This document shows, piece after piece, positions 20,604 through 43,559 of a stretch of 48,229 nt of DNA (position 1 is the first letter of the stretch; every line of letters starts with the position of its first letter). The translations under genes were made by a program, and so were the position numbers. Source of the DNA: Candidatus Heimdallarchaeota archaeon (lineage in GTDB: Archaea; Asgardarchaeota; Heimdallarchaeia; Hodarchaeales; Hodarchaeaceae); contig DXJL01000016.1 in the NCBI GenBank assembly GCA_019057635.1, positions 1 to 48,229 on the forward strand, given 5' to 3'. The notes below the pieces were generated by a model. It was not told where the DNA came from and did not search any database. It saw only the letters and a list, made by a program, of their open reading frames with translations.

Positions 20604-21302
20604 TTACCAAGGTTTCACTAATTCTGGCTGAATGGTTGGGAGCTCGAAAGTGAGAGCTGCACGAAATGGTTCAGTTCTCTTAGCTTTGCGAATATTTGTG
20701 ATTTCACCACTAGTAATTCTAATTTTGACACTTTCTTCTAAAGCTGGCTTGTACGCAGAATCAAATATTAGTAGCCATGTAGAATTATTGCTCTCATTCC
20801 AAGCGACTACATTAATCTCATCTTTTTCACGATCGTCGATTAAATCAAGTATATGGTAAAAACCTTTGAATTGTTCAATTTCTTTAGGGTCTTCACTTGT
20901 TGACAATACTATGGGAACTTTTTTCAGTAACCTTTTAGGAACCCCTTTTTTAGAGTCATCTACTCCCCGATTTGTTAATTTTCTCTTAAAGATTCCCTGA
21001 ATTTTTATTTCACTATCAACTAAATCTCGACGTAGCCTTGTTAAAACAAATAAACGATATACCGAACGATCTACTTCCTCTAGCTTACTAAAATTCTTTA
21101 CTAGAAATTTTAAAATATTAATTGCTAACTCACGCTGTTCGTGCGAGTAAAGATCATTCGCATAGGCATGCATAGAAGAAATTAATCCTTCTATCATTTC
21201 TGAATTCCTTTTAATTAATAAAGCTGATTCATTTTGTTGACCAGTTGCTATTAAGGCAACAGATAACCCTAGTATTTGAGTAGAAGAAAGTTCTGGATCC
21301 AT
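20604..21302 (-). CDS. C-terminal part of the PIN-TPR gene, in frame with 21363..22424 across one TGA
   Basis: The 20 codons between the TGA at 21365-21363 and this ATG are open and in frame (LYLLLGKYERALELFNAVPQ). Confidence 0.65.
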   Translation of the reverse strand: MDPELSSTQILGLSVALIATGQQNESALLIKRNSEMIEGLISSMHAYANDLYSHEQRELAINILKFLVKNFSKLEEVDRSVYRLFVLTRLRRDLVDSEIKIQGIFKRKLTNRGVDDSKKGVPKRLLKKVPIVLSTSEDPKEIEQFKGFYHILDLIDDREKDEINVVAWNESNNSTWLLIFDSAYKPALEESVKIRITSGEITNIRKAKRTEPFRAALTFELPTIQPELVKPW

Positions 21303-21362
21303 TTGAGGAACGGCATTAAAAAGTTCTAATGCTCGTTCATACTTCCCTAACAGTAAATATAG

Positions 21363-22424
21363 TCAACCTTGTAAAGCTATTAAATTTTCAATTGCCTCTC
21401 TCCCAACAGCAATGTAGTTCATATATACTCGACAAGCTTCAGCGTGTACCAATGCTTCTACAATTTGATTACGTGATATTCTATAATATAATAACCAACT
21501 ATGGTGTTCGAACAATTCAGATCTAAGCATTCTCTCTACTATAACGCGTTGTTCTAGCCCATCAATAGAATATATTAATTCGGAGCTTTTTGCTAGAATT
21601 TCAAGAAGTACTTCTTCTGCTTTGTGAATATGAAAGGTTTCTCGGGTTCCACGGGCTTTTATCACCAATTGCTGAGCAATAATTAAACCATCCTCAGGAG
21701 TTAACACTTCGGGTTCATGTTTTGGGGCGATTGCGACAATTTCTTTTTCGATTTCTGCTAGACTACTGTCGGCCCCTACTTCAGCGGCTGATCTGACAAA
21801 TCTCGCAGTATCGGTTAAATCATCAATTAGCATTGCTACATCAATATATCGACGAGTTTTCTTTTTATAACTCCATGATGCGCGAAAAACTCTTTCAACA
21901 GTCTGATCCAGAATTTTACGCATTTTTACGTCAGATACGGATGCTGCTAAGATTGACACAAACGAACCACATGATAAATGATCAATCCCTTTGAATACTT
22001 TGTTTTCTTTAATTATCCTAGCGACACCTTCATCATCAGAGACTAACGCTACCTTGTTGTTGTCTTTCAAGCTAAATTTTTTAGCTAATATTACAACATC
22101 GATATCTGCAGGATCGCCTTTTACACGTACCATCCGTTCTTGAACAGCATACTCTGCTGTTCGATTCCACAATTTCGAGGACCTTTTAACAGGTTCCATA
22201 CGTATAAACTTTGGTATAAGTCGTCGTAATTGCCGGAATCGTCCAGGAATATCTGATTTCGGGATTTCATTAGGTACCATTATCTCCATCCCTACAGATT
22301 GCCCAATTTTTTGAAGATTTGGCATTAAGGAATCAGATACACCTGCATTCAACAAGGAAATGAAAAAGTTCGTGTCAAGAACTACAACATCAAATACTGA
22401 TTCAGACACAGAGAGAAACTCCAA
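21363..22424 (-). CDS. PIN-domain protein, N-terminal part of a probable ~606-aa PIN-TPR protein interrupted by an in-frame TGA
   Basis: PIN motifs 'VVVLDTNFF', 'VPNEI', 'DPADIDVV', 'LVSDDEGV', followed by helical repeats. Confidence 0.78.
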   Translation of the reverse strand: MEFLSVSESVFDVVVLDTNFFISLLNAGVSDSLMPNLQKIGQSVGMEIMVPNEIPKSDIPGRFRQLRRLIPKFIRMEPVKRSSKLWNRTAEYAVQERMVRVKGDPADIDVVILAKKFSLKDNNKVALVSDDEGVARIIKENKVFKGIDHLSCGSFVSILAASVSDVKMRKILDQTVERVFRASWSYKKKTRRYIDVAMLIDDLTDTARFVRSAAEVGADSSLAEIEKEIVAIAPKHEPEVLTPEDGLIIAQQLVIKARGTRETFHIHKAEEVLLEILAKSSELIYSIDGLEQRVIVERMLRSELFEHHSWLLYYRISRNQIVEALVHAEACRVYMNYIAVGREAIENLIALQG

Positions 22425-22893: not shown

Positions 22894-23742
22894 ATGTTAG
22901 AAGGATTATTTATGATTGAAAGCAAATTTCACGTATACATCCCAAGCATGGATGGTGAATATATTCCTGTTAAGTTTACCTCTCGTGCTGAAGATCTAAA
23001 AGAAACTGAAGTGTTAATTTTTCTTGATGAGGATAACAGACAAATCTATATTTGGACAGGAGAAAATTCATCTGTTAGAAAACGCTTTATCTCTAGTCAA
23101 ATAGCACGACAAATGCGTCTTGAAAAAGGAATGACCCATAGAATTTCTACTGAAGATCAAGGAAACGAGACGATAAAATTCAAAGATTTTATTATACGGC
23201 TAGAAGCGTCACCTGTGCCCCCTGGTTCGTTACTAGACGTAACACCTGCAGTACAAGCCGCATCTATAAACGAACTAGCCCCTCCCCCTAAAACAGCACG
23301 ACCCATGAAAGCTAAGATATCTACGGATGAAAGTAAGGTAGAAAAAGTAATAAAACCTGTTTCTCCTCCTCCTCCACCAATTTCAAAAACCAAACTGAAA
23401 GAAAAACCTGAAACTTTAATCTTATATTTTGCTGCAGATGAGGTTTCAGAAGTGACAAATTCGAAAGCAAAACTTCTGTACCCCGCATCTAAATCTGAAA
23501 CAACTCTCACGATGCTTCATGCATCATCTGCTGCCACCGAAGGAAAAATCGTATTGTATTCCATTAAAAGAAATACAAAAACTGCTACTTGCAAAACAGC
23601 GACACCAATATTTGTGATTTATTTATCCCCAAACATGAACTCCGTGCACGCTCTTGATGATCTGGAAATTCCAATCACTGCAGGTTACTCTATCTATTAC
23701 ACATGTCCTGGAAACACTTTCTTGGGAATTAACCTCGAGTAA
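22894..23742 (+). CDS. Gelsolin-like domain protein with Pro-rich linker and unknown C-terminal domain
   Basis: 'DLKETEVLIFLDEDNRQIYIWTGENSSVRKRFISSQIARQMR...EDQGNETIKF' matches the gelsolin-repeat pattern; 'PPP' and 'PPPPP' runs follow. Confidence 0.78.
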   Translation: MLEGLFMIESKFHVYIPSMDGEYIPVKFTSRAEDLKETEVLIFLDEDNRQIYIWTGENSSVRKRFISSQIARQMRLEKGMTHRISTEDQGNETIKFKDFIIRLEASPVPPGSLLDVTPAVQAASINELAPPPKTARPMKAKISTDESKVEKVIKPVSPPPPPISKTKLKEKPETLILYFAADEVSEVTNSKAKLLYPASKSETTLTMLHASSAATEGKIVLYSIKRNTKTATCKTATPIFVIYLSPNMNSVHALDDLEIPITAGYSIYYTCPGNTFLGINLE

Positions 23743-26140: not shown

Positions 26141-26524
26141 ATGCCATTTATCAACGTAACATTTGCAGAGGCAAAGAATTCTTTAACAAACCGAACCTTA
26201 ATCGTCGAAATGTTAAAAGAAAAAAAAATAAATCCAAAAGAAGCCGATCTGTTAGAAAGTATGCATTTATATGCACAAGATCCGGAAAAAACCTCCCTGC
26301 AAAAGGTAAACGATTTGTGCATTCAATATTTTCAAGATGATCCAGAGGATGCATATCAAAAAATAAAACGGTTTGTCACTAGTGATAATAAAAGAGTTGC
26401 TTGGGTAATATTCTCCCGCACATTCCAAGAAATTCCATATGATGATAAAGATCCGTTAGATGACTATACACCTCGTGTTTCCGAAGTGTTGATTATTAGA
26501 TCTACCTTCATTGCAATTAAATAG
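26141..26524 (+). CDS. Hypothetical protein, first gene of an abutting three-gene cluster
   Basis: 127-aa ORF whose stop directly abuts the next ORF at 26525. Confidence 0.6.
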   Translation: MPFINVTFAEAKNSLTNRTLIVEMLKEKKINPKEADLLESMHLYAQDPEKTSLQKVNDLCIQYFQDDPEDAYQKIKRFVTSDNKRVAWVIFSRTFQEIPYDDKDPLDDYTPRVSEVLIIRSTFIAIK

Positions 26525-28312
26525 GTGGAAGAATCAATAATGACAGAAATTAGTTGTGAAGAATTAGCAACGGAAGCTGAAACCGCAACTAGCCACTCTC
26601 TTGAGATTGCTGCAGGAATCTATGAATCAACAGCTAAATGTTTCGATTCAAAGGGTAATAGAAGAAAAGCAGGCCAATACCTAACTATTGCGGGAGATTT
26701 TTATCTAGAAATTAAGAAAATGGATAAAGCTGCCAGTTGCTATGGAAAAGCGATAGTTCGGCATCTAATGTCTGAAGATATTGAAACTGCGAAAATTCTA
26801 GTCGAAAAGGGAAAGAAATATGGATTTACTACTGCAACCTATCAATTCAAAATGGCATTAAATGCCCTAGAACGAAAAATATCTACAGAAGATGAAGACA
26901 TTCAGGAGGAGGATAAATCTACTCACACTCACATCGAAGAAGATCTTCCAGATATTAAGATATTACCTTTGGAGGAAGAAGATTTATTACCTCTAGATGA
27001 AGATGAATTCGCAAATAATAATGATATTGATTTCAATCGTCAAGATTTTATAATCCCTCAATTAAAGACTGATGATCCCTCAAAAATGGACTCTTTCGCA
27101 GTCTTGGCTGCAGTTTCGAAAACTGTAAGAAGAAAATCAGAAAAGAAAATAAGAAGTGATGCTGTAGTAAAAGATCAAAGGGGAGATACAAGATTTTTGT
27201 CATCAAAATCATCAATTTCTTCTAAAAAAAGTTCCTTTAGAGCCAAAGGGACCGACAAGGATATGTATTCAAACTCAAAAGTTAAAGCTACTGAACTTTT
27301 ACAAGATGAAGAACCTTCTGCTGAACATATGATCGGTACTGATACTTTGGACATCGTATACGCAGCTAAAACGGAAATTACAAATGAATACGAAGAAGAC
27401 CTCGTGGATATTGAAATAGTAGATCGAATTCCATATAGGTGGGAAGTAGTCGATTTCCAGACAGATTTTGAATTAAATGACAGAAAAAAAACAAAGGAAG
27501 GAACTGTCTTCACTTGGAAAGCTGAAAAACTGATCCCGGGAAATACAGGCACCATTGAGTATGTATTACGGAAACGAGTAGAAAGATCGATCATTCTCCG
27601 AAAAGAACGTCAAGTTGTAGTATTAAATTTATACCATTCCTTGCATCAGAATTTAGAAGCTCAGTTGAACTTTGTTAATACAACAGGAGGAGTCGTCCAA
27701 GAAATACTGATCGAAGACGTTATCCCCCCAGAATTAGTTGTGAATCAAGCGTATTCTCCTCAAAAAATTCGTCCTGTTAGGATTCCAACACATGATTCAA
27801 CTTTATTTAGATGGATATTTAGTAATCTACCCCCAGGTGATACATTTTCCTCAAATTATGTTTTTAAGGAGAAACCGTTAACTCGCCACTACATAACTGA
27901 AGTTGAAACAGATTCTGGAAAACTCACCTGTAATAAAATTTCACAGCCACTTATAGATTCATTTGATTGTGAGTACATTTGGATGTATACAATTGAAAAT
28001 ATGTCGACCAATGAAATTATGTTAATTGATCGAATACCACTTGATTATAGTATATCTTTTGTTGATCCAATACATCTTCGGCCAACAATAGTTCGAGAAA
28101 AATCAAATTCTCTCTTAACCTGGAATTTGGAGAGAAAAGAAAAAATTTACATAATTATTCGAATGTCTGGCCAAGAATCATTTACACCCCTATCACCTAC
28201 GATTGAGATAAAGAATATCAAGGAAATCCAAATGCTAGAAACTAGTTCAGAATCTGAAAAGGCATTAATTGACATCAGGCATCTTAAACTTAAATTCTTG
28301 GAGATCATCTAA
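26525..28312 (+). CDS. alpha-SNAP-like N-terminus, acidic linker and three beta-sandwich (DUF11/mu-homology-like) repeats
   Basis: N-terminal 'AAGIYESTAKCF...KAGQYLTIAGDFY...KAASCYGKA'. Three repeats of N-x(n)-[IL]-x-D-x-I-P ... W. No signal peptide. Confidence 0.65.
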   Translation: MEESIMTEISCEELATEAETATSHSLEIAAGIYESTAKCFDSKGNRRKAGQYLTIAGDFYLEIKKMDKAASCYGKAIVRHLMSEDIETAKILVEKGKKYGFTTATYQFKMALNALERKISTEDEDIQEEDKSTHTHIEEDLPDIKILPLEEEDLLPLDEDEFANNNDIDFNRQDFIIPQLKTDDPSKMDSFAVLAAVSKTVRRKSEKKIRSDAVVKDQRGDTRFLSSKSSISSKKSSFRAKGTDKDMYSNSKVKATELLQDEEPSAEHMIGTDTLDIVYAAKTEITNEYEEDLVDIEIVDRIPYRWEVVDFQTDFELNDRKKTKEGTVFTWKAEKLIPGNTGTIEYVLRKRVERSIILRKERQVVVLNLYHSLHQNLEAQLNFVNTTGGVVQEILIEDVIPPELVVNQAYSPQKIRPVRIPTHDSTLFRWIFSNLPPGDTFSSNYVFKEKPLTRHYITEVETDSGKLTCNKISQPLIDSFDCEYIWMYTIENMSTNEIMLIDRIPLDYSISFVDPIHLRPTIVREKSNSLLTWNLERKEKIYIIIRMSGQESFTPLSPTIEIKNIKEIQMLETSSESEKALIDIRHLKLKFLEII

Positions 28313-30253
28313 TTGTCCGAAAGCTCACCTCATTTTGATATGCAGCAGTTTAACCATGTGGTATTAGCGGTTCTATGGGACGACATCTCGGGACCATCGA
28401 TAATTTCTCTATATCCATTGGCTTTCGACGACCCTGAATCAATAGCGTTACAAATATATTTAGCTTCAGTAACAGTTTTTGGTCAACATGGCCAATCTCA
28501 GAGGACTGAATTTAGTGTTCCTTTGTTGAGTTTAGGACAAAATATTCTCGCCCGAGTGGCATTTGATGCATGGTTTGATCCTTCAATTCGCGGAGAAGAG
28601 CGACCATTTTTTTTATCTATAATTGGAAAACACGACAGTGCAAATCTTTTAAATACACATCTTGATACACATATTTTTACATATTTAGATATATTAAAGG
28701 AACAAAAAGATGCCTTTAATGCAAGATTCGTATGGCAAAGAATTACAGATTCAATAAACGACCCCCCGTTAAAAGAGCCCAAATTTGATCCTGCCGATAT
28801 AGATTCGGATTACGCTATTCCTCGTGCCCTGAAGGATTTACAAACAGCAAGTGAGGCATGGGATAAACTCAAAGATCGTAATCAACTTTGGACAGCTATG
28901 AAAGTGGCTAATCGGTTAGAAAATATTGACGATAAAGCTGCAGGGGAAGCATTTTTTTTATCTGGGAATATTTTCCAAGCAGCTAACAACTTCCAAGATG
29001 CACAAAATGCTTTCAAACAAGCTACTGATGCTTTCTCTAGAGTCCATGAATTTCAAAAGTCAGGACAGGCTTTCTGTTTAGCAGGAAAAATGGCATATCA
29101 ACTAGGTGATAATGATCATGCAATTGAATTGTTTCAAAGTGGAGCTGTCTGGATAAAAGACCCTAAATCACAAGCTTCAATACAGTATGATATGGCACTT
29201 GTATATCAAGATCTCAATCTCTTTGAAGAAGCGAACGGATGTTTTGAGAAAGCAGTAAAGTTGATTGAAGAAATTGATAATCAGATTGCAGCAAGATATA
29301 CTTCAACGTATGCAAGTAAATTAATGCTCCAAGCGGAAAAGGAGAGACTAGAAAATCCAGCATATGCTCTCGGTTTGACGCGTAAATCTGCTGAACAAAG
29401 AATAAGAGCAGCTGATTTCCTTAAAAAGAGTGATGAAGGACTCGAGGAAGCTGCTACATCTTTAATGCTAGCTGCTAAGGTATATTTTTCCTTGGAAAAT
29501 GAAAACAAAGGAATAACTCTTGTAACACATGCTTCCTCATTATTTAAACGCATGGACAATTTCCAATCAGCTCTTAAAACGTTGTATGACGGTGCTCAAT
29601 CAGTAAAAAATATAGAATCAAAATTATCATTATTAAACAATGCCACGTCCATAATTCCTGAAGATCCAGCTGATGAACTTCTGCAACGATTATTAGGACT
29701 GATAACTTATGATATTGGACGGATTGAAATGGAAAAAAATCATTATTTGGTGTCCAGAGATTATCTATCCCGATCAAAAAAACTGCTTACTACGGCCAAA
29801 GCTCCTGCAGTTGAACTAATTCCCGTGTTACTTCTTTTTGCAAACAATTCCTTTAATATAGAAAATTTTGAAGAAGCTGCAAACAATTTTTACCACGCAT
29901 TTGAAATTTTATCAGGTATGGAGGAGACAGAATCTTTCCTAAAACAAAAAAATCGGTCTTTGACAAACGCACTGATTAGTTGGAGACGGAGTAGTACAAT
30001 ATATCATAATGCAGCCTTAGTATCTCTGATGAACCAAAAAGAAAGGGAAACTGTAGAATATTTCACCCGTTCAGTTGCATTATTGATAGAATGGGCTGAA
30101 AATAACACACATGACTCCCAGGACGAAATTCAAAAAGTTCTAAGTAATCGAATTCGCAAATTGCAATTGAAGAATGATTTATTTATTTTAGCTGAATCAA
30201 AATATCAAATTGAGGCATTAATTTCAGATTTAAAAGCATTAATCATCTCATAG
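28313..30253 (+). CDS. Longin/uDENN-like N-terminal domain fused to an alpha-SNAP-like TPR solenoid
   Basis: 'AVLWDDISGPSIISLYP' and 'FDPSIRGEERPFFLSII', then many 'A..F..A...F' SNAP/TPR repeats. Confidence 0.68.
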   Translation: MSESSPHFDMQQFNHVVLAVLWDDISGPSIISLYPLAFDDPESIALQIYLASVTVFGQHGQSQRTEFSVPLLSLGQNILARVAFDAWFDPSIRGEERPFFLSIIGKHDSANLLNTHLDTHIFTYLDILKEQKDAFNARFVWQRITDSINDPPLKEPKFDPADIDSDYAIPRALKDLQTASEAWDKLKDRNQLWTAMKVANRLENIDDKAAGEAFFLSGNIFQAANNFQDAQNAFKQATDAFSRVHEFQKSGQAFCLAGKMAYQLGDNDHAIELFQSGAVWIKDPKSQASIQYDMALVYQDLNLFEEANGCFEKAVKLIEEIDNQIAARYTSTYASKLMLQAEKERLENPAYALGLTRKSAEQRIRAADFLKKSDEGLEEAATSLMLAAKVYFSLENENKGITLVTHASSLFKRMDNFQSALKTLYDGAQSVKNIESKLSLLNNATSIIPEDPADELLQRLLGLITYDIGRIEMEKNHYLVSRDYLSRSKKLLTTAKAPAVELIPVLLLFANNSFNIENFEEAANNFYHAFEILSGMEETESFLKQKNRSLTNALISWRRSSTIYHNAALVSLMNQKERETVEYFTRSVALLIEWAENNTHDSQDEIQKVLSNRIRKLQLKNDLFILAESKYQIEALISDLKALIIS

Positions 30254-30287: not shown

Positions 30288-32513
30288 TTAATCAACGAAT
30301 TTTATCCTGATTTTTTCCACTAATTTTTCCCGTTCTTGTGTTATTCTAGACTTTTTCAGTGTTAAGCGCTTTATGATTTCCTCATGTTTTTGATCTGATA
30401 CTTCGTCATTAAGAAATTTTTCATCTGCTTTTTCCAAAGAGTCCTCAACTTGAGCTAGATCGTTATCCAATGATAAAAGCTCGGGATGATCAATTGGGAT
30501 ACCCTCCTCATCATATTGGTATTCTATTGATTGAACTTTTTGTTTTACTTCCGCTTCTTGGTCAGTCTGTGGTTCTATAGTAATTGCTTTTGTAAAAACT
30601 TTAGGACCTATTATCTTCTTTGAGGAAGTTGATTTTATATCTTCTTTTCTGCTTTTTCGTTTTGTTTTTACACCCTGATCACTTAGATATTCAGAGTCGC
30701 CAATTAAGAAGCCTTCCTGCTCCCCCTCAGAGTTTGTTAACAGCAAATTCGGCATTTCACCGGAGAAAAGATTTTCCACTTGAGCAGTAAAGAGGTTATC
30801 AAACCTTTCTTGAGCCATCGCAATTTCTTTGCGAGCTTTGTCCAAATCTATTTTTTCTCCATCTTGTATACGTATTCCAAAAACTTTTACAATTTCCCCA
30901 ACAGGAGTTTCCAATACAGACACAAATGGTGTTTGTACAAAGGAGTAATCTGGAGTTTCCAAAACGGTAACCAATCCCCCGAGAATTTTGACATATTCTC
31001 CTACCCCTTTTATCTCTACAACTTGAACTACTCCTCCTAGTATCTGAACAAGCTCAATTCCGAGCTTTTCAAAAACAAAGATTCCTGGTAATCGTACTAA
31101 TGTATAGTCTTTAGTTTCTGTGATGGTATATTTTGATGGAGTTGTATCAAATACCGAAGAGAAAATCCCTTGAGGGCCCTTCCAGTCTTTTAATTGAGAT
31201 ATTGCTTGTTTGACATTAGTGAATAATTCAGAAGTTGAATCAAGTCCTGCAGATATTAACTCATTTTCAGTTAGTTCATTGACATTTTTCGATTGGAGCT
31301 GAAGTTTAATCTGATCCCATTCTTCAGGTGGAACCCAAACCGTTGTTGTGCCATCGACTTCTTTTGTAGAAACCTCTTGTTCTTCTGTTTCTGTCGATAT
31401 CTCAGATTTTCCCATCAAAACAAGAGTTGTTCCTTTTTCTGTAACAGTAGGGACCGCTATTACCCCTTTTTTAGTCGAAATGGACGTCTTACCTTTACTT
31501 ATTATCTTCATGTCATCTGTTGGGATAGTGAAAACTCGTGCAGGTTTCTCAAAGGATGTTTCCTGAATAGCACTTGCGAATTCATTAATTCGACCACCAA
31601 CTTGACTGTTAGGATCAACAATCTTACCTGTAAGCGAATTAAGAATTGAATTTAGTCCATTAGTTCTTTTTCTTTGAGGCACCAATAAGAGTAACACCCC
31701 AATTATCAATAAGAAAAACGCTAAGTATTCAATGACTTCTTTTCTGTTTACTACCCAACCAAGCCATAAGAATACCAGTAGAATAACAGATGAAGAGAGA
31801 AATCCATCACGAATCCTTTCTACTCTATTCTTCAATGCAAAATTTTGACGAAGAAGAGTATTTATTGAAACATTTTGTCTTGGTGAGTTACCTGGTAGAA
31901 TAATCCCGAGGATATTAAATGTGAGAGCAGCAAGAAGTAATAATTCTAATTCGAAATTGAAACTTTCAGGTAAAAAGAGGATAGAAAAACCCTTTAATAT
32001 GAAAATGACTATAGTAGCTATCCAAAAACCACGGAATACTTCACCAACATAATAAAAATAGCCGAATTGTAAGGTTTTTAAATCGAATCTATTCCAAATA
32101 ATTGCTAGTGGAGTGAGAATGCAAGCCATCAAAGATTCAAATTCGTAATACGTTAAATCCGGAAAATTCATATCCCAGAGTTCAAAAGTGACAGAGGCTG
32201 ATGAAACAATGTTAATGATGAGAAATCCGATGAGTATTTTCACCGCCCTATTAAGTGGGGAAGGAATATCTCTCTCATCATTTGAAAAGAATCTAGAAAT
32301 AGGAATTACGAAAAATAAAATGAGAATAAGTCCAAATAATGTTGCTCGTATAGGTGAATCACCAGAAAATATCACAGCTACAATACACCAGAAAATGAGT
32401 GCAAGAGTAAAAATATAATCTAGGGGGGTCTTTGGTCGAAGAAATTCTTCTGTTTGATCAAGTGCAAAGCTCTCTAATGAGCCATATTTCTGTAATTTTT
32501 GGATATTTTCCAT
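30288..32513 (-). CDS. Polytopic membrane protein (about 8 TM) with a large soluble C-terminus containing beta-hairpin repeats and a coiled coil
   Basis: Hydrophobic segments within aa ~30-280; repeats 'VQILGGVVQVVE / VKILGGLVTVLE / VQTPFVSVLE'; helical C-terminus. Confidence 0.7.
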   Translation of the reverse strand: MENIQKLQKYGSLESFALDQTEEFLRPKTPLDYIFTLALIFWCIVAVIFSGDSPIRATLFGLILILFFVIPISRFFSNDERDIPSPLNRAVKILIGFLIINIVSSASVTFELWDMNFPDLTYYEFESLMACILTPLAIIWNRFDLKTLQFGYFYYVGEVFRGFWIATIVIFILKGFSILFLPESFNFELELLLLAALTFNILGIILPGNSPRQNVSINTLLRQNFALKNRVERIRDGFLSSSVILLVFLWLGWVVNRKEVIEYLAFFLLIIGVLLLLVPQRKRTNGLNSILNSLTGKIVDPNSQVGGRINEFASAIQETSFEKPARVFTIPTDDMKIISKGKTSISTKKGVIAVPTVTEKGTTLVLMGKSEISTETEEQEVSTKEVDGTTTVWVPPEEWDQIKLQLQSKNVNELTENELISAGLDSTSELFTNVKQAISQLKDWKGPQGIFSSVFDTTPSKYTITETKDYTLVRLPGIFVFEKLGIELVQILGGVVQVVEIKGVGEYVKILGGLVTVLETPDYSFVQTPFVSVLETPVGEIVKVFGIRIQDGEKIDLDKARKEIAMAQERFDNLFTAQVENLFSGEMPNLLLTNSEGEQEGFLIGDSEYLSDQGVKTKRKSRKEDIKSTSSKKIIGPKVFTKAITIEPQTDQEAEVKQKVQSIEYQYDEEGIPIDHPELLSLDNDLAQVEDSLEKADEKFLNDEVSDQKHEEIIKRLTLKKSRITQEREKLVEKIRIKFVD

Positions 32514-32778: not shown

Positions 32779-35700
32779 TCATTCAGTAACTGGTTGGTCA
32801 TGGCAATAGATACACCCTTCTTCAATGACTTCTGTAGGACTTATGAATGCCCCACACAGGCTACATACGATCTCTTCATCTGTTTGTACATCAACTTGAG
32901 AAAAAGATGATTTGACCTCAATTTTATTACCATTAGTAAACAACTCTTTCTCTTCCAATTCCTCAATTTCATCAGTTGATACTAAAGTTGATTTTTGTTT
33001 ACTAAAATTTACCAAAACAGATTTAGGAGAATTCTGCTCCTTTTCATTATGCAGAATAGTCTTCATTAAATTATTCCCTGGGGAGAGTTTTGTTACAGGC
33101 TTAGTAGGCTTAACAGTTTTTTTCCTACGCTGACTAGGTTGAAATTTAGCTGTTTTTGGAAAATTAAAAATCGTATCAAGAGATTGTGTTCTGATTTTTT
33201 TCTTTTTAGATTTTTTCAACTGTGATCTGGTTGATATATGTACAGGCCGAGGGAGTGGTGTTTTGCCTTCTTCTGAAGAAGATTTGGCTGGTGATTTTCC
33301 TATTTCTTCCGACTTTAAATCAAGGATTTTCTCTTTCTCGGCGATTTCAATTTCTTGGATATCGAGAACATGCTGATTTTCTGTTTTAATTTGTTGATTC
33401 TTCATCGGATATTGTATCATTCGATCAAAAATTCTACCAGGGTCGTAAATATCTTTCAAATACTGTTTCGTATCTATTAATTGTTGGATATCTTCAATTG
33501 AGGTGATTTCATTCAGCATAAAACTTAATGTGCATATTCCATGTTTAATAAAAACAGATTTAACCTTTTTAAAATCAAAATCAAATACCTGAGCAGGGAT
33601 AACGTGGTTTCCCTTTATATTAACCATTTGGATACGGATTCCTGGATCAATGGAATAACCAAGATCCTTTAAAATGTAGGCCGCAGTAACCTGAGGTAAT
33701 TTTGACTTATATTCTTTTAGATCTTTGTTAAGAGCCTTAGGTTTGACATAAAATGATGGATCTATGTTTCCATCCATTACTTCTTTTCTTATTCTATCCG
33801 ATGCCTTAAAGGCGTTTTGATAAATCTGTTCCAATGTAATGGGATGAACTGGATCAAACTGTTCTAGATACGCTTTTATGACTTCTTCCTGAAAGTGTTT
33901 TTGTAACTTTGAAAAATCTGCTCTCTTTGACTCCAACCCTGTAATCTCCTCTTCCTCCCACGTATTATCCTGTGATAGATGATTATAAACTATATATTTC
34001 TTCTTTCCCATGACAAATTGAAAATCATAAGGTCCGTCTTGCTCGAATTGAATTAGACTTTTACTTATCTTTTTGATTGTCGTCCCATCGTTTAACCAGT
34101 AGTTGTCATTTTTAAAACCAGCTTTAGACACCTTTTCATTTAATATTTTATCAATAAGACTCACTCGAAACTCAAGTTTTTCATCTGATTCTGCAGAATT
34201 TATCAATGTAACTGGAAAATCAAGGGGAAATTGTTTAGGAACCCATAACCAAACTCCATCGGTATCTAATTCTGTTACACGGCCAATGTCTTCTAATTGG
34301 TCCGCAGCCCAATGAATTAAATCAGCAGATAACTTTGTAGTAATACCCGCACACGGCGTACTGGCATTTCTTACCCCACCACGCATCCCTAATAAACCAT
34401 AGATGCTATTTAATGGAACTTTCATGCCTAGCTGTGTACTATCATGAAATTTTTGTTGACGAAGCATGTCTGGCGAAACTGACTGATTATTAGCACTTTT
34501 TTGTTTGATAACTTGTTTTAATCGCTGCGCTTCAAATTTATGTCTTACCCGTGTATTGAAAAATTCATCCATAATTCGGGCAACAAAATTGAAAGCTTTC
34601 TGGCACACCCGCGATTGAACAGAAATGAGAACAGATATCTTTTTTGTCCTAACATCAATACTTAGATATGTATTCTTAGGAAGCTGAAATATTTTTGGCT
34701 GATCTTCAAAAATATCAAAGAAATTTCTATCTAAATGGCTTCCAAGTTGAGTTGCTTCTACTGTATGCTCTAACCACTTCGTTATTTCATTATAGGGATC
34801 AATAGAGGTGAAATTTTTACCTAAATATGATTTACTTAACGGAATTTTGACAAATCCCGACTTTTTTCTCAACACATAAGCTTGTGTTTGAGAACCATTG
34901 TAGGAAAATATTTCCTGAACTCGTCCAGTTGTGGCTTGTTCTGGTTCATACTCTTTACACGACGATTCATTTTTAGTGGTACATATTGAGGGATCACATT
35001 TTGATGATCCCTTTACTCTATGTTTGCATGGTCTACGAGCGGTAAGTTTAATTACCCAATCCCCTTCAAAAAAGCAACTATCATCATTTTCTCTATATTC
35101 ACATCCTTGACACTTTGTTAGGGGTACAATACCTGAAGGCTGAAGTTTATATTGACGTATTTGCGAAGGATACATAGAAGTTACATCTACATGTACACCC
35201 CTTAGCTGAACATCACCAGTTGTTTCCAAAAGTTTATCGACTTGCTTCAGCGTATTTTTCACGACTTTTTCAATTCCCTCAACACGAATACTGGAAAGAT
35301 CCTCAAGTATACTGCGCAATATATTATTCTTCTCTACAAAAAGCGATTTAGGTACCCCTCTATCTTGTAAAGCTAAGGAAAAATTCTGAAATAACTGTTC
35401 TAGGTCATCTGAATAGGAAATCGATAATTCACCAAATTTCTCTAACACTCTTCTGTCAAATTGGTTTTTCATTTCCCTCTTCGCGATATCTTTACTGTTC
35501 TTTACAATAATTTGCTGTATAAGCGATTTAATCTCAGTTAATGCTTTTCTATTGGTTTTGTTTTTCCTATAGATGTCACTTCGAAAAATACCTGAACGTC
35601 TCGCCTCAACAAGTCCTCCTGTATATGCAAAGGAATCAATCATAATATTAGGAGAGAAAGACTCAATATGTTTTTGATCAATACGACGCTTTCCAACTAT

Positions 35701-37203
35701 GTTGTAATGATGACCTTCAGCATCAATTAACAAATCATCAAGCGAGCCAGCACGACGTGTTAATAATTCTGACGCTGGGACAGGAAACATTTGTCCCAAC
35801 GAAATAAAGAAATCTAATACAATTTCTTTCACGTACCGGTAAGTAATATATCCGTCACAGGCTGCATATCCTACTGCATCAACGGGGCTTTCTTCGATTG
35901 CAAAAAGTGCCTCCCGACCTATAGGAATTATCTTAAGCTTCTTTTCAACACTCGGTTTCAGTCCTAAGTCTTTTTTAGGCAAGTAACTATATTTTTCGTT
36001 GAATAAAAATGCATCAAGATGAATTATTCCTGCTCCCGACACGGAATCAATTCTAGCGGGGGAATAGTTTTCTCTAAGATCAATGGGTCCCGTATTTTGT
36101 CCTGTTGATTCCCGTTTGAATTTGATACGAAAACCAGTTCTTCTCTCAAGAGAAATATTGTAAAGTAAGGAACGAACAGCTAAAAATGGAATGTCAAAAC
36201 GATCACCAAAAAAATCAGCCAGTACGTCCGGTTTGTACTCCTCAATTATCTCATAAAATCGATGAAGAAGCTGTTGTTCATTATTGAAAACTTGTACCTC
36301 TATTGGGACTCGATCAATAAGTAACGAATGAGGAAATTTTGTGCCCGTCTTACACCAATCAACCCAAGGCTTTGAATGATCTTCATCTTTCTGCATCAAC
36401 ACGATATCAATGCCTGAGACTTCTTTCGTGTTTACAACATCGTCATTTATTATCAGATGATTTATATTTCCAGTGAATAACGAAATCATGGAAATTGCAT
36501 CACGATTTGGATTTGGCTCACGAGTTTGATCAAAAACAGTTTCTATATCATAAGCAAGAATTTGAAGATCTGGAGGGGCCATATTATTTAAGATATCGAG
36601 TTTGTGAATTTCTCCTCCACTAATATCAGCTTGATACCACGAGCCCACTCTAATATTATGGTCAATAGCTACTCGATGATTATATAAGACATCAGCTTCT
36701 CTCCATTCAATGATACCTTTTATTTTTTCACACTGGGATCTCAAGCTAGGAACAGACCTAGGATGATCGACAGTCACTTTAAGAAAATCCTTAGTTACAA
36801 GAAAAGTTAGATCAGCAGCATCGTGACATTTTTCCTTTGTAACCATAACAATTTTATCCTCCCCCAGCTCCTGAATCCGAGCTATTATACGATTTACTTG
36901 ATTATTTGTTAAACCGGATGTTATTAGCATATAGAAGTAAGGTGCGTGCCGTAAGAAAGCACTTCGTTTGTTATGTTCTTCATCAAGAAAATATATCTGA
37001 ATACCATTAATCGTTCTTTTTTTACTACCCGATTCGTAACTATCCTCTGAATCAAAGTAAGGTTCATAAGTATCTTCTTTTCTACTAGTAGCTTCATAGT
37101 CCAAAATAAAGATGGGTTGAATTAGCTGTTGATTATATCGAAATGGTTTAAACCATGAACGATAACCAAAACTCACACCGTGATCTTGTCCTGAACTTGC
37201 CAT
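32779..37203 (-). CDS. polB: Family B DNA polymerase of the eukaryotic Pol epsilon (POLE/Pol2) type
   Basis: Exo I 'ILAYDIET', Exo II 'GDRFDIPF', 'SYLP', 'YTGGLVEARRSGIFRSDI', motif A 'HVDVTSMYP', CysX 'CQGC...C...VCQ', motif B 'KVPLNSIYG', motif C 'ELDTDGVW', C-terminal CxxC...CxxC. Confidence 0.93.
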   Translation of the reverse strand: MASSGQDHGVSFGYRSWFKPFRYNQQLIQPIFILDYEATSRKEDTYEPYFDSEDSYESGSKKRTINGIQIYFLDEEHNKRSAFLRHAPYFYMLITSGLTNNQVNRIIARIQELGEDKIVMVTKEKCHDAADLTFLVTKDFLKVTVDHPRSVPSLRSQCEKIKGIIEWREADVLYNHRVAIDHNIRVGSWYQADISGGEIHKLDILNNMAPPDLQILAYDIETVFDQTREPNPNRDAISMISLFTGNINHLIINDDVVNTKEVSGIDIVLMQKDEDHSKPWVDWCKTGTKFPHSLLIDRVPIEVQVFNNEQQLLHRFYEIIEEYKPDVLADFFGDRFDIPFLAVRSLLYNISLERRTGFRIKFKRESTGQNTGPIDLRENYSPARIDSVSGAGIIHLDAFLFNEKYSYLPKKDLGLKPSVEKKLKIIPIGREALFAIEESPVDAVGYAACDGYITYRYVKEIVLDFFISLGQMFPVPASELLTRRAGSLDDLLIDAEGHHYNIVGKRRIDQKHIESFSPNIMIDSFAYTGGLVEARRSGIFRSDIYRKNKTNRKALTEIKSLIQQIIVKNSKDIAKREMKNQFDRRVLEKFGELSISYSDDLEQLFQNFSLALQDRGVPKSLFVEKNNILRSILEDLSSIRVEGIEKVVKNTLKQVDKLLETTGDVQLRGVHVDVTSMYPSQIRQYKLQPSGIVPLTKCQGCEYRENDDSCFFEGDWVIKLTARRPCKHRVKGSSKCDPSICTTKNESSCKEYEPEQATTGRVQEIFSYNGSQTQAYVLRKKSGFVKIPLSKSYLGKNFTSIDPYNEITKWLEHTVEATQLGSHLDRNFFDIFEDQPKIFQLPKNTYLSIDVRTKKISVLISVQSRVCQKAFNFVARIMDEFFNTRVRHKFEAQRLKQVIKQKSANNQSVSPDMLRQQKFHDSTQLGMKVPLNSIYGLLGMRGGVRNASTPCAGITTKLSADLIHWAADQLEDIGRVTELDTDGVWLWVPKQFPLDFPVTLINSAESDEKLEFRVSLIDKILNEKVSKAGFKNDNYWLNDGTTIKKISKSLIQFEQDGPYDFQFVMGKKKYIVYNHLSQDNTWEEEEITGLESKRADFSKLQKHFQEEVIKAYLEQFDPVHPITLEQIYQNAFKASDRIRKEVMDGNIDPSFYVKPKALNKDLKEYKSKLPQVTAAYILKDLGYSIDPGIRIQMVNIKGNHVIPAQVFDFDFKKVKSVFIKHGICTLSFMLNEITSIEDIQQLIDTKQYLKDIYDPGRIFDRMIQYPMKNQQIKTENQHVLDIQEIEIAEKEKILDLKSEEIGKSPAKSSSEEGKTPLPRPVHISTRSQLKKSKKKKIRTQSLDTIFNFPKTAKFQPSQRRKKTVKPTKPVTKLSPGNNLMKTILHNEKEQNSPKSVLVNFSKQKSTLVSTDEIEELEEKELFTNGNKIEVKSSFSQVDVQTDEEIVCSLCGAFISPTEVIEEGCIYCHDQPVTE

Positions 37204-38446: not shown

Positions 38447-41047
38447 TTGTCTTTTCAGCTGAAGCGATATAATCCAAAACAGAGAACGTCGAATTCAGTT
38501 GTAAACAGGATAAAACAATTAATCCAAGAAATTAAACATCTTGATCTTGAAATTTCTGTCTCCTATTTTTCGAACCAATGGTTTAAGGATTTATTAGTTC
38601 TTCATTTTATCACTCTGATGTTCTTTGGTTTAAAAAATATCAATAAAATGCTAAACTACGAATTTAAGAACTGGAAGGAGGTATTTTCTTATTTTGATGA
38701 TCCTTATACCATTATCCTTCAATTAAACAAATATTTTCCTCTTCTACCAGGTCAGGATCAGGTTCATGACTATTACAATAAACCTCTAGTCAACGAACAA
38801 CAGATTTTAAAGACGGTAGATTGGGGGGATTATGCTGAAACGATATTAAAGGACTCTTTTTTTCAAAAAAATCATAGCAATCTAAATGACTCGTCTTTAA
38901 CTGTAATAAATTTCGATCTTTTTGACAGAATTGCAAATTTGTTAAGAGAATACGGGGAAGAAGAAAAAAAAATTGATGGAATAGTCTACACTCCTTATTA
39001 CCTTGCTGAACAAATAACCCAAAGGACAATTGGTCAGTGGTGGAAAATAAATTCACAAATAGGAACTAGAAAAAAGCAAAATCAAAAAATTTATCTTCTT
39101 GATCCTACTGTTGGAACAGGCACCTTTTTAATTGCTGCAGGCAATATTTTGTATGATATTTTCAGGAAAAAAGATCCTTATTCCTCCTCTCTTAATCTAC
39201 GAAAGAGAATAATTGAGCATAATCTTCATGGGTTTGATAAAGATCCTATCGGTATTTTCATCACTAAAATTAAGTTACGATTATGGATATTAGAAGATTG
39301 GATGTCAGAAGTCGAGCCGTATGGGGATCTAGCTGACAATATTTATCTAGGAGATTCCTTATTCGGTTATAATGACCGGGAAAATCACTTACTGTCGAGT
39401 TCTAAATCCAAAGCGAAGCCAAGAAAAGAACACTCTTCTGCTATCGATAGGAAAATAGGAGTCTACAAGCTTCCATCAAAATCATCCTTTTATGAAAAAA
39501 CTCTAATCATTAATGACTATTACAGAAAGTTTTGTAAAGATATAAATGCTTATTATTTCATTATAGAAGGAACAAAACGTGAGTGGAATGAATGTAAGAA
39601 CTATTTAGAGGAGGATATTAGGAAAAAAGTACATTTTTCAGAATCCGATTACTTTAATCCATCAAATGATACTTATATAATCTTTCCCGACGAAATTCAG
39701 CAAAAGAATGAAAATCTGACTGGTGACCTCACGCCTTGGTGTTTTCCTGGAAGTGATCATATAAAGGAACCCGAAATTCCCCCAGAATTCCACATTATTA
39801 TCGGAAATCCTCCTTTTATAGCATTAACTGATTTATCAATGGTTACCCGATTAAAGATTAAGGAAATACATCCTGAAATTTATAACGGAAACAGTGATCT
39901 ATCCTACTTCTTTACCAAAGGAATGATGCAAAATTTGAGTCCCTATGGAGTGTTAGGATTTCTTCTATCTAAATCTATTCTTTCCAGTGTTTATGCTAAG
40001 CAGATTAGGGAATTTATCATACGTAAAGCAACTCTTCTTGAAATCCATGACTTTAACGAATTGCTTATCTTCCCTCAAATTAATATTAAAACTTGCTTCA
40101 TGCTGCTAATAAATAAAAAATGGACGTCTAATGAAGAACTTCATGCTTATAAGTATTCTAAAACAAAATTTGAGGATATAGAAGCAACAAAAATATCCCA
40201 AATTAGACTAAAATCTGAGAAATGGACATTGTATTCTCTTGACACTAAGAAGACCATTGAAAAAATAATTAGAATATCAAATTGTAGGTTAAATGAAATA
40301 TCATCACTCAGCAAAGGTATAGAAACTGGTTGTGATAAAGTTTTTGCTCCCAAAGTTCCTTATTTTTTTTCTATGCATTTACATCTCAAATCCTCTCACT
40401 ATAAACCATGGTTAAAAGGAGGGGAGATAAAACCATTTTTTATAAAGCGAGAAGGAATGGAAGTCTTATATGCTCCAAAATTTCGTCAAGAGCAAATTAG
40501 AAATTCAAAGAATGCATATCAGTATTTGAAAGATAATAAGGATGACCTTCTAAACAGAAGTAGAGTTACTAAATATTACCTCTGGAGAGAGGGAGATGAA
40601 CGGAACACTATGGATTGGCAAGGAGTTAAGATTGTTACCCCCTACAAAGCAAGGAGGAATACTTTTGCGATTGATGACCAAGGTTGTCTTTCCTCAAAGG
40701 ATGTTGTTTGGATTATCCCTAACGAAGATTACAATGATGCAAACACTTTACTATTCCTAGTAGCCTTATTGAATTCAAAAACACTTACGTTTTATGCTCG
40801 GTGTATGTTTAAAGACTTGGGAGGAATGTATGATTATTATCCACTTCAAATTCGAAATCTACCTCTGGTATTACCACCCCGTGATTCTCAGAAGTATATT
40901 GACATAGTAACTGTTACAAGACAAATTCAAAACTCACCGAGTGAAAAAAAACATATTTTAGTTGAAGAAATTGATAGAGTAATCTATCAGTTATACAATC
41001 TGACAAAAAAGGAAATCTCAGAAATTGAATCCTTCCTAAATCAATAA
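38447..41047 (+). CDS. DNA amino (probably N6-adenine) methyltransferase, gamma-class TaqI/Eco57I-like, with C-terminal target-recognition region
   Basis: 'GIVYTP', motif I 'LDPTVGTGTF', 'GFDKD', 'GDSL', motif IV 'IGNPPF', 'LVALLNS'. Confidence 0.87.
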   Translation: MSFQLKRYNPKQRTSNSVVNRIKQLIQEIKHLDLEISVSYFSNQWFKDLLVLHFITLMFFGLKNINKMLNYEFKNWKEVFSYFDDPYTIILQLNKYFPLLPGQDQVHDYYNKPLVNEQQILKTVDWGDYAETILKDSFFQKNHSNLNDSSLTVINFDLFDRIANLLREYGEEEKKIDGIVYTPYYLAEQITQRTIGQWWKINSQIGTRKKQNQKIYLLDPTVGTGTFLIAAGNILYDIFRKKDPYSSSLNLRKRIIEHNLHGFDKDPIGIFITKIKLRLWILEDWMSEVEPYGDLADNIYLGDSLFGYNDRENHLLSSSKSKAKPRKEHSSAIDRKIGVYKLPSKSSFYEKTLIINDYYRKFCKDINAYYFIIEGTKREWNECKNYLEEDIRKKVHFSESDYFNPSNDTYIIFPDEIQQKNENLTGDLTPWCFPGSDHIKEPEIPPEFHIIIGNPPFIALTDLSMVTRLKIKEIHPEIYNGNSDLSYFFTKGMMQNLSPYGVLGFLLSKSILSSVYAKQIREFIIRKATLLEIHDFNELLIFPQINIKTCFMLLINKKWTSNEELHAYKYSKTKFEDIEATKISQIRLKSEKWTLYSLDTKKTIEKIIRISNCRLNEISSLSKGIETGCDKVFAPKVPYFFSMHLHLKSSHYKPWLKGGEIKPFFIKREGMEVLYAPKFRQEQIRNSKNAYQYLKDNKDDLLNRSRVTKYYLWREGDERNTMDWQGVKIVTPYKARRNTFAIDDQGCLSSKDVVWIIPNEDYNDANTLLFLVALLNSKTLTFYARCMFKDLGGMYDYYPLQIRNLPLVLPPRDSQKYIDIVTVTRQIQNSPSEKKHILVEEIDRVIYQLYNLTKKEISEIESFLNQ

Positions 41048-41060
41048 TGAGTTTGAATTT

Positions 41061-43559
41061 TCATGAAATGTAGGAAAAGTCTGTCTTAGCTTTATCAATA
41101 CGAGCTTGGATAATTTCCTGCAATGATTTATGCATTTTTTCTATTTTTTCGTCCGAAAGTGAGTAGATTTCCCTGAGAAATTGGTCTAATTCTTGTTTAG
41201 ATGATGGTTGTTCATTTTTTATATACGAAGATGGTTTGGACAGCAATATTTTTTGGAAAAGCGAGGCCAAGAACGATTTCTTGTCAAGATACTTGAATTG
41301 TGGAATTTTAATATCTTGATATTCATATACTTTTACATCCAGTCCTCCTTCTCCAAGATTTTCGCGTCCTGATAGTTCTATCTGAATTGAGACAAAAACA
41401 GTATTCAGAAATAGAAACAGAAACGTAGTCAGATCTTCTTCATTTATTATTATATCGCTCAGAGGAGTAATGCCATATAACCGAGCATCAAAATAATAAT
41501 TATGAGGATTATAGAAAAATGGATAGCGGTCATTTATTGTCATTATGCAAAGTATTGGACAAAAATGATAATACTCGTCAGGTAGCGAGTACCAAAATTT
41601 ACGATTCGCACAAGTTGTCCTTAAGGCATAGGGGTTTCCTTTTATGGGCCTCCATGTTTCTCCCCATTTAATATATTCTCTAATTCCTGGTTTAAGCTCA
41701 AGAGAACTTTTCTTAGGTATTATAATGACAACATAAATTAAATTTTCGCTTGTAACTTTGAATCCTTCAAGTTCCTTAGGTGATTTTATTAGGTAGTTTG
41801 GGATCCATTTTTCATTATCAGGAGTAGTATATAGGATTGATTCTTTCTGGAATTCATGATTATTCATGTCAGAATGCATCCAATACTCTCTCTCTATGGT
41901 AAATGAATCCTCCTCTAAAAGAAAACCTTGTTCTTGTAATCTATGCAAAATTTTATAGTTTTGCGGTTTTAAAATTAAACTTCCATCTTTTAAATCTATA
42001 CTGGAAACGAAAAACCTATTCATTCTTCCAGGTTTTCCAACATAAAAGAAGTCATTTGCGCCACTAGTAAAACCTCTGCGAACTGAGGCATAATCTCTTA
42101 AAAACTTCATGTTATCTTTTGTATTATCAAGATAATCAAGGAAATACCTTGGGGCTTTTACGAATAGTCCCCATTTTGGTTCTAGAAGTAATTTACTCTC
42201 CATAACAGATGCAAACACACTATCCTTAATCATTGGAAGTGCCTCTTTGATCCCGTAATTAGCAAGGAGCTTGAGATCAGCTTTGGAATTTATTCTGATG
42301 AACTTAACTTCATGAGAGGATGAGCTCAATTCAAGACTTTGCATGTGACTCTTTACTTCAAGTGTCAAAATAACTGTATTAACCTCTACTGAGGGGATTA
42401 ATTTTTCTAAACGAGTCGATACAATTAATTCAATATTGTAATGATCTAATAAGAAAAGTTGAAGCATTAAACCATATCTGACATCCATCCATGAATTAGG
42501 AATAATCAATCCTAAACGATCTTGGGGATTTAAAAACTCAGAAATATAAAGGATGAAATAAATATACAAACTAGATTGACCAGAAACTCGAAAAGATGTG
42601 TATTTCTGTTTAAAATCCGAAATAATGCTTGTAGAAGAAACTCTATTTCTTATAAAATCTTTTTCCCTAATTGGAATTAACTCTTGCCGAGTATATGGCG
42701 GATTCATTAAAATAGCAATAACTCCATGCTTTTCAGACCGTAACTCACTTAAAATAGAGGCACTTTGAAAAAAATCTTGAGTATATACTTGACATTCGAT
42801 TGATAGTGACTGTAATTTGCAAAATACTTTTAATGCGCTCTCACAGATGAGACTGAGTATCGGGTCTTTCTCAATTGCAATTACTTTTATTACTCCAGAA
42901 AGGTCAATCTTGGGTAAGTTTTCTAAAGCACGAAGTAAAAAAACACCAGTACCAGCCGCAGGATCAAGAATTATCTCAGTTTCAGGAACAATCACCTGAT
43001 CAAAAATAAAATCTACAACAGAAATCGGAGTAAAAACTTGGCCTTGGTTTTGTATTTTATTTTGCCCGATACTCCTATCATAATAATAAGGGAACTTCAT
43101 TTGGGAATAGTTTATTGAATTGCTAGTATTTTCTAAAAGGAGTTTCAGACATTCATTTGAAATATAAGGATTAGATACGAACAGTTCAATAAGAGATTGT
43201 AGAGGAAATATTGGTGAGTAAAGCAAAGGGATATCTAAGTTTTTTTCAGTAATTCTATCAAATATCATGTGAATTGAATTGGAGTACGAATGTTCACCCA
43301 GCAATTCGACCCTCTTAAGAGTCTTTAATCCTAAACAGAGGCAATCATATATCAAAACCGCTATAACAGTTGAAATTGAATTAATTTTGTGATCTGTTGC
43401 ATTTACATTTTCTGAAAGAAATATACTCTTGAAAAAAGCTTCTGATTCTGAATTGGTACCACTAGACTCTTTCAATTTCTGAATAATGCTATAAATATAT
43501 GGTGTGATGTGTTTGATAAACTCAGGAAAGGGATCTCTCTCTTTGATCTGTTTTTTCAA
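41061..43559 (-). CDS. Second DNA amino-methyltransferase, gamma-class Eco57I-like, convergent on the first
   Basis: 'GQVFTP', motif I 'LDPAAGTGVF', motif IV 'MNPPY', 'IIPNSWMDVRYG', 'RRGFTSGANDFFY'. Confidence 0.87.
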   Translation of the reverse strand: MKKQIKERDPFPEFIKHITPYIYSIIQKLKESSGTNSESEAFFKSIFLSENVNATDHKINSISTVIAVLIYDCLCLGLKTLKRVELLGEHSYSNSIHMIFDRITEKNLDIPLLYSPIFPLQSLIELFVSNPYISNECLKLLLENTSNSINYSQMKFPYYYDRSIGQNKIQNQGQVFTPISVVDFIFDQVIVPETEIILDPAAGTGVFLLRALENLPKIDLSGVIKVIAIEKDPILSLICESALKVFCKLQSLSIECQVYTQDFFQSASILSELRSEKHGVIAILMNPPYTRQELIPIREKDFIRNRVSSTSIISDFKQKYTSFRVSGQSSLYIYFILYISEFLNPQDRLGLIIPNSWMDVRYGLMLQLFLLDHYNIELIVSTRLEKLIPSVEVNTVILTLEVKSHMQSLELSSSSHEVKFIRINSKADLKLLANYGIKEALPMIKDSVFASVMESKLLLEPKWGLFVKAPRYFLDYLDNTKDNMKFLRDYASVRRGFTSGANDFFYVGKPGRMNRFFVSSIDLKDGSLILKPQNYKILHRLQEQGFLLEEDSFTIEREYWMHSDMNNHEFQKESILYTTPDNEKWIPNYLIKSPKELEGFKVTSENLIYVVIIIPKKSSLELKPGIREYIKWGETWRPIKGNPYALRTTCANRKFWYSLPDEYYHFCPILCIMTINDRYPFFYNPHNYYFDARLYGITPLSDIIINEEDLTTFLFLFLNTVFVSIQIELSGRENLGEGGLDVKVYEYQDIKIPQFKYLDKKSFLASLFQKILLSKPSSYIKNEQPSSKQELDQFLREIYSLSDEKIEKMHKSLQEIIQARIDKAKTDFSYIS

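Follow-up and report, generated by a model that had tools for sequence, protein, structure and literature searches.

A conserved three-gene cluster of Hodarchaeales with a GP-motif longin protein as candidate GTPase off-switch

The DNA analysed here (the window) is a stretch of 48,229 nucleotides (nt), contig DXJL01000016.1 of Candidatus Heimdallarchaeota archaeon (assembly GCA_019057635.1, order Hodarchaeales of the Asgard archaea, the close kin of eukaryotes), referred to below as contig C118 of genome G000 (3.19 Mb, 92% complete). Three consecutive genes, A, B and C (Table 1), encode a small protein, a protein with a helical head and three beta-sandwiches, and a protein with a longin domain and a helical solenoid. 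A preliminary description had proposed that they form a cytosolic proto-adaptor complex acting with small GTPases. All three were found to be real open reading frames (ORFs), single-copy in G000, and a sequence scan detected no hydrophobic segment in any of the soluble proteins, in agreement with the cytosolic character claimed for them. NCBIfam gives none of the three a name. Comparisons were made with an order-level sample of 24 genomes (Hodarchaeales), a phylum-level sample of 400 genomes, 60 distant loci picked by B or C profile matches and, for families f19 and f20, 28 genomes seen through 40 loci. Judging from the named B-family record P0073, f19 and f20 would be of Lokiarchaeia type. 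Trees of the longin and of B are quick trees, with branch support given as SH-aLRT (Shimodaira-Hasegawa-like approximate likelihood ratio test).

Table 1. Features of the gene cluster, with positions in the window
Feature	Position	Strand	Description
Gene A	26141..26524	+	127 aa; soluble, without a known family; orthologues present in 23 of the order's 24 genomes
Gene B	26540..28312	+	590 aa; true start ATG 26540, not GTG 26525
B residues 1-127	26540..26920	+	alpha-SNAP/Sec17-like helical-repeat head
B residues 128-269	26921..27346	+	Acidic linker with conserved short motifs (alignment); helix and beta-hairpin module at about 140-228; disordered at 232-269
B residues 274-560	27359..28219	+	Three tandem DUF11-like beta-sandwich repeats
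B-C coupling site	28300..28315	+	GGAG (28300-28303) within the last codons of B, 9 nt, TAA of B, TTG start of C
Gene C	28313..30253	+	646 aa; GP-motif longin and tetratricopeptide repeat (TPR) superhelix; model pLDDT (predicted local distance difference test) 88.0; found at full length in 23 of the order's 24 genomes
C residues 15-150	28355..28762	+	Longin; carries W22-D23, G27-P28 and, in the loop joining strands 4 and 5, Arg93 (codon 28589-28591); topology from the model
C residues 169-645	28817..30250	+	LGN/Pins-like TPR solenoid

The longin of C carries a set of strongly conserved residues. Both W22-D23 and G27-P28 were invariant in 16 of 16 alignment rows, and the motif DxxxRGxxR (DxxxR93GxxRPF in the window) was present in 21 of 21 Hodarchaeales orthologues with Arg93 invariant. 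The GP motif has been reported in SMCR8, C9orf72, FLCN, NPRL2 and some Asgard longins, and not in FNIP2, NPRL3, adaptins, TRAPP or DENND (PMC12290439, in part). An arginine finger, and the need of C9orf72 W33-D34 for GTPase-activating protein (GAP) activity, have also been described (PMC8213707; 10.1101/2020.04.15.042515; both in part). When the family profiles were compared with the PDB, the human C9orf72 longin ranked first, and in the profile alignment the WD and GP of C fell in register with its W33-D34 and G38-P39 at the same spacing. A narrower first longin profile and the profile of a Folliculin-positive paralogue gave no useful PDB match; Pfam Folliculin was matched by 2 of the 27 family members, and no match to the NPR2 family was detected in G000. 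The arginine finger of eukaryotes (SMCR8 Arg147) is taken by us to lie in the longin strand 4-5 loop, as Arg93 does here. Among the 150 best library matches, GP and Arg were both present in 31 of 32 C-sized proteins, a count biased by the profiles, in which Arg-bearing rows predominated. Of 7 tandem pairs of C, 6 combine a copy that has the RG motif with a copy that lacks both RG and GP. Two further GP/Arg longin proteins are encoded in the same genome, at G000:C189:21071-22387 (L231, above the Pfam Folliculin cut-off) and G000:C2:10050-11741 (L232).

After residue 165, C is all-helical TPR. TPR families were above the Pfam cut-off, HEAT and Adaptin_N gave no match at E 0.05, the best folds were TPR, and the best structural match of the solenoid was LGN/Pins. 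No cDENN/dDENN core was detected behind the longin, and the uDENN/DENN membership suggested in the preliminary description was dropped; C as a DENN guanine nucleotide exchange factor was likewise rejected. C resembles the complexes C9orf72-SMCR8(-WDR41), FLCN-FNIP2 and NPRL2-NPRL3 and the Asgard FLCN/SMCR8-type longins (PMC12290439, in part) in that its longin carries WD, GP and a conserved arginine; its relatives also show Arg-plus/Arg-minus paralogue pairs and Arf-family GTPases nearby. These GAPs, however, carry a DENN module where C has a TPR superhelix, with WD and Arg on one chain, and no counterpart of B and A was found in the eukaryotic complexes. C thus appears to share the longin type of the GAPs, but is not filed as a member because TPR stands in place of the DENN module. 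The roadblock-Rab-DENN operon and the Asgard NPRL2-like fusions of Liu et al. (10.1101/2020.10.19.343400, in part) have the same longin class and an operon link to small GTPases; that operon has DENN and a roadblock protein, whereas A-B-C has a longin-TPR and a triple-sandwich protein.

The structure of B was modelled with a pLDDT of 80.7. Its head best matched alpha-SNAP/Sec17, but just the N-terminal half (about 120 of 290 residues) is present: residues 3-121 match Sec17 residues 1-135 only, the NSF-binding C-terminal part is absent, and B does not have the full-length SNAP fold. The Pfam SNAP family was below cut-off for B and reached 27.8 bits (cut-off 25) for part of C. The small helix and beta-hairpin module of the linker is kept in all B types (pLDDT 65-88), and the disordered stretch behind it has pLDDT <50. 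The three repeats are homologous to one another (HHalign 98, 90 and 91%) and to the DUF11-like repeats of the Asgard mu-like family (HHalign 93-97%), not to its other parts. Their best match was DUF11 (PF01345), with DUF11 clusters of the Atlas at 0.86-0.88 as a lead only, and distant B homologues match Pfam DUF11. DUF11 proteins are mostly surface proteins, but B has no export signal. A PDB sequence search with the B profile gave nothing useful. The Foldseek comparison proposed in the preliminary description did list the mu-homology domain (MHD) of delta-COP and TRAPPII subunits for B, though weakly (E 2e-3 to 2e-2) and at template modelling (TM) scores <0.3 (delta-COP MHD, E 0.016 and TM 0.29 with the whole-chain model). 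In the VIA fold searches, the best 50 rows contained no longin or mu/appendage structure and were filled by TPR domains, which in the whole-chain searches of B match its helical head.

Gene A had no Pfam match above cut-off and no match in the Atlas, and no longer fused form of it was found, which is weak evidence. Kinship of A to the C-terminal half of the protein encoded before a 520-aa B type, or to the middle module of B, was considered and left unsupported (HHalign <1.2% for each).

The preliminary description had both gene junctions abutting with zero gaps. For A-B (26524/26525), the abutment is an artefact of ORF calling, the real gap being 15 nt, because close B homologues begin at the residue matching ATG 26540, a purine-rich site lies just 5' of this ATG, the protein database gives a B length of 590 aa, and the A-B reading frame varies among the 17 junctions listed. 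For B-C (28312/28313), the zero gap stood, and by its sequence it is a true translational coupling. The spacing from GGAG to ATG across G000 peaks at 8-10 nt. At the B-C junction (n=22 loci), the codon 9 nt behind GGAG was TTG in 3 loci, window included, ATG in 2, and ACG in 9 as counted by script or 10 when L043 was added by eye. Variation of the start was noted at 28300-28315 of the window and at L033, L035, L039-L043, L045, L047 and L048. In L042, L045 and L034 no ATG, GTG or TTG lies in frame before the first conserved strand of C, and in L043 the sole candidate start is a GTG inside this strand. A conserved near-cognate ACG start of C is thus likely in the relatives; a literature search for a conserved ACG start in archaea turned up nothing. 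C was in frame with B in 18 of the 22 loci. Since two loci carry 2-3 in-frame stops, the shared frame points to coupling and not to read-through; a B-C read-through fusion was ruled out, the frame being set by the fixed GGAG+9 spacing. A promoter and terminator scan of the region stayed at chance level, using a bacterial model unsuited to archaea.

Linkage of the genes was examined at increasing distance. B, like A and C, was found in 23 of the 24 genomes of the order, and the single genome without them is the same 74%-complete one for all three. A stands directly before B in 22 of 23 genomes, the remaining case being cut by a contig end, and C directly after B in 22 of 23, with C carried elsewhere in G023. 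In the second family of the order (f2), the flanks differ, yet A-B is kept in 2 of 2 and B-C in 1 of 2 cases. At phylum level, the B profile matched 119 of 400 genomes at E 0.001, some weakly, and the A profile 27 of 400; A and B are adjacent in G116 and G113, members of other classes. In f19/f20, B and C were both seen in 17 genomes and linked in 14, B with a gelsolin-like head and two repeats and C as longin-TPR-longin or TPR-longin. In other Heimdallarchaeia, the SNAP-like head of B is encoded by the gene before it (HHalign 91%), and C is missing from the neighbourhood. At L161:9213-9818 and the 520-aa gene behind it, and also in L159, L162-L167, L173, L174 and L176, B starts with an alpha/beta domain of another kind, and a 200-aa gene upstream carries the SNAP-like head. 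Domains thus appear to have been exchanged between neighbouring genes in this group. In the quick B tree (56 rows, 2 dropped), sequences cluster largely by lineage, which fits an old, vertically inherited gene. These linkages, together with the B-C coupling, bear out the conserved, co-translated unit of longin, helical-repeat and beta-sandwich domains put forward in the preliminary description; gene order is kept in Hodarchaeales and partly in other classes.

The tie to small GTPases was seen in relatives of the cluster. The preliminary description had named as partner a Rab-like protein, whose gene (13480-14109) gave a Pfam Ras match and lies 12 kb from the cluster. This was rejected as evidence: in G000, 328 of the 707 ORFs with enough contig (46%) have a GTPase-domain gene within 12.1 kb, the baseline set being 67 genes that may include non-Ras types. 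A further gene lies directly behind the Rab gene, at 14139-15014. At 7 of 26 f19/f20 loci, C has a GTPase gene no more than two genes away, compared with 209 of 2190 G000 genes (9.5%), so that the claim of a genomic link to GTPases held in these relatives; an occasional co-clustering with the Asgard mu-like gene was seen as well. These GTPase neighbours include Arf-family proteins, and in four loci the same longin type is fused to an Arf-family domain. A GP/Arg longin and an Arf-family GTPase domain stand in one chain at L191:5905-6861, L213:6312-7292, L217:8206-10147 and L225:59-1063; such a fusion is possibly a GTPase with its own GAP.

We propose that A-B-C is an Asgard-specific cytosolic longin-GAP scaffold, a candidate off-switch of GTPases and not an AP/COPI coat, a reading about as apt to hold as to fail. 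The longin of C would be a candidate GAP module of the C9orf72/SMCR8/FLCN/NPRL2 type. By analogy, two C longins would pair, as a homodimer in Hodarchaeales and as an Arg-plus/Arg-minus heterodimer where C is duplicated, and the pair would cup an Arf/Rag-like small GTPase and insert Arg93. The Arg-plus/Arg-minus pattern of the tandem pairs is like that of FLCN:FNIP2 and NPRL2:NPRL3. The LGN-like TPR groove of C may bind an extended peptide, possibly the acidic linker of B. The beta-sandwiches and the variable head of B (SNAP-like, or gelsolin-like in f19/f20) may place the complex at a partner, a membrane protein or actin, with A as a small partner of B. The complex would thus act as a longin GAP on a scaffold and not as a cargo-sorting coat adaptor. 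Prediction of a complex of B 125-452, A and C 160-646, scored for C and run with no controls folded, gave 0.02 against a mark of 0.32 and speaks neither for nor against a complex.

Several observations weigh against the longin-GAP scaffold. The match to C9orf72 is weak (E 0.042 and 0.013), no alignment with the arginine of SMCR8, FLCN or NPRL2 was obtained, and the window's own longin matches no Pfam family. The seven GTPase-linked loci represent 4 genera, with a single genus contributing 4 loci, and the baseline is taken from another lineage; in Hodarchaeales no GTPase is linked to the cluster, and no such longin-GTPase fusion is found in G000. Linkage within the genus is unspecific and weak evidence, because the whole 20-kb neighbourhood is syntenic. 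No C stands next to B in other Heimdallarchaeia or in G116 and G113, and one Hodarchaeales genome, as noted, has C elsewhere. The Arg-less copies of C form one clade (SH-aLRT 98), and therefore appear to stem from one duplication and not six. GP and Arg were also present in 34 of 36 receiver (response-regulator)-domain longin fusions among the 150 best matches, under the same profile bias, and the quick tree groups the Hodarchaeales longins with receiver-domain fusions and not with the f19/f20 C proteins (SH-aLRT 91). Because of these fusions and this grouping, Arg need not mean GAP activity. Orthology of C, and hence of B-C, across classes is likely but not proven, because of the same grouping and because f19/f20 C proteins rank first with a Hodarchaeales-only TPR profile but weakly (best E 1.7e-9).

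The same evidence lends itself to an explanation without GAP chemistry, in which A, B and C are co-regulated signalling proteins that bind loosely or in pairs, the GP/Arg longin serves dimerisation or output in general, and the parts made of TPR and DUF11-like repeats act as generic binding modules. Receiver-domain fusions, the nearest relatives of the longin of C, are of the NPRL2-like type, a described Asgard class tied to two-component systems (10.1101/2020.10.19.343400, in part), and B lives without C in several lineages. The preliminary description had conceded that the domains might match only generic prokaryotic TPR/DUF11 proteins, and half of this came true, the solenoids being generic TPR and the sandwiches DUF11-like; the lack of conserved linkage that it also named as a refutation did not come true. 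However, WD, GP and Arg are all kept and are lost together in one copy of the tandem pairs, and the C family is fused or adjacent to Arf-family GTPases; we consider this explanation unlikely, though it is the strongest of the alternatives.

The proto-adaptor coat of the preliminary description, a heteromer ancestral or parallel to AP/COPI/TSET with C as longin and trunk and B as appendage- or mu-like sandwiches, would sort cargo under a small GTPase; we give it little probability. AP1-5, COPI, TSET and the Asgard mu-like proteins (Eme et al. 2023, PMC10307638, in part) have the same inventory of longin, helical solenoid and beta-sandwich, and the weak Foldseek matches of B as well as the adjoining Arf-like GTPases would agree with such a coat. 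AP/COPI/TSET, however, have a HEAT trunk, a sigma/mu-type longin and a complete mu-homology domain, and A-B-C was rejected as an adaptor of this kind on all three tests of sequence: its solenoid is TPR, its longin is of the GP type reported absent from adaptins (PMC12290439, in part), and it is without mu subdomain A. PF01217 (Clat_adaptor_s) had no match anywhere in G000; PF00928 (Adap_comp_sub) had none for B or C in the Pfam scan and was silent in the family scan of G000, in which its control was silent too. The repeats of B are homologous to a family that does reach Adap_comp_sub, with 33.1 bits (cut-off 31.6) for the gene near B in L175, which by eye resembles Table S3 entries of PMC10307638 (in part). 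The homology is, however, limited to the DUF11-like repeats, and B appears to be a separate family without a mu-domain. The mu-like gene is co-clustered with B in three loci: in L189 and L230 it directly precedes a B-type gene in the same orientation, and in L175 it is three genes away from B. The two co-operonic cases, however, are from one genus, and in G000 the mu-like gene is away from the cluster, on contig C157. This gene (G000:C157:9385-11604, L203; in 22 of 24 genomes of the order) has N-terminal HEAT repeats (HEAT_2 above cut-off), DUF11 and a sub-threshold Adap_comp_sub, and with HEAT and mu-like parts in one chain its layout appears closer to adaptin than the A-B-C cluster. Least probable of all, to our mind, is a cytoskeletal scaffold, in which B would tether C and a GTPase to actin filaments and control protrusions instead of vesicles; as a localisation step it is compatible with the longin-GAP scaffold. 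B homologues of f19/f20 begin with, or stand behind, a gelsolin-like domain, P0073 is named 'Gelsolin-like domain', and a gelsolin-domain gene lies upstream in the window. In the Hodarchaeales B, in contrast, the head is SNAP-like and a gelsolin domain is absent, Pfam matches to gelsolin are under cut-off (E 0.002), and the upstream gene is three genes away and missing from the f2 flanks. That gene (22894-23742, plus strand; Pfam E 0.0017, under cut-off) is syntenic in the genus.

The longin class and the Asgard mu-like proteins are already in print. A-B-C as a unit was not found in literature searches, outside whose scope were the supplements of bioRxiv papers, which might list these families. 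It is also absent from the passages of PMC12962969 and 10.64898/2026.10.28.762692 covered, and none of six short sequence motifs taken from A, B and C occurs in the PMC10307638 supplements, as far as these were covered. The present analysis adds that the genes belong to one Asgard-wide family whose members have swapped domains; it also adds the Arg-plus/Arg-minus pairs, the mu-like gene as a neighbour of B and the corrected start codon of B. Earlier work proposed that eukaryotic longin GAPs descend from Asgard longins with the GP motif, for which neither a partner nor a substrate is known (PMC12290439, in part), and described it as difficult to pair Asgard GTPases with their regulators by gene order (PMC10933270). 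The A-B-C family offers partners (A and B), natural Arg-plus/Arg-minus pairs, adjacent Arf-like GTPases and a member, P0073, with a named record from a cultured Lokiarchaeon; whether control of small GTPases by arginine-finger GAPs is older than the eukaryotes can thus be addressed directly in vitro. On a wider and rather improbable view, A-B-C would be one version of an Asgard-wide operon complex, an Arg-finger longin GAP (in one lineage already divided between a catalytic and a non-catalytic paralogue) acting on Arf-like GTPases and tied via B to the mu-like protein and actin, a pre-eukaryotic module uniting the ancestors of the C9orf72/SMCR8/FLCN GAPs and of the mu-adaptin sandwiches.

Other genes of the window were noted. 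A 741-aa membrane protein of no Pfam family (30288-32513, minus strand) is convergent on C in 18 loci of the genus but not in the second family. It is followed by a 1474-aa family B DNA polymerase (32779-37203, minus strand), probably the epsilon-like one reported only for Hodarchaeales (PMC10307638, in part). At 20604-22424 (minus strand), two ORFs (353 and 232 aa) together correspond to a single conserved gene of 600 aa in relatives (70-98% identical), and the split would be a frameshift or an assembly error. Two convergent Eco57I-like adenine methyltransferase genes lie at 38447-43559.

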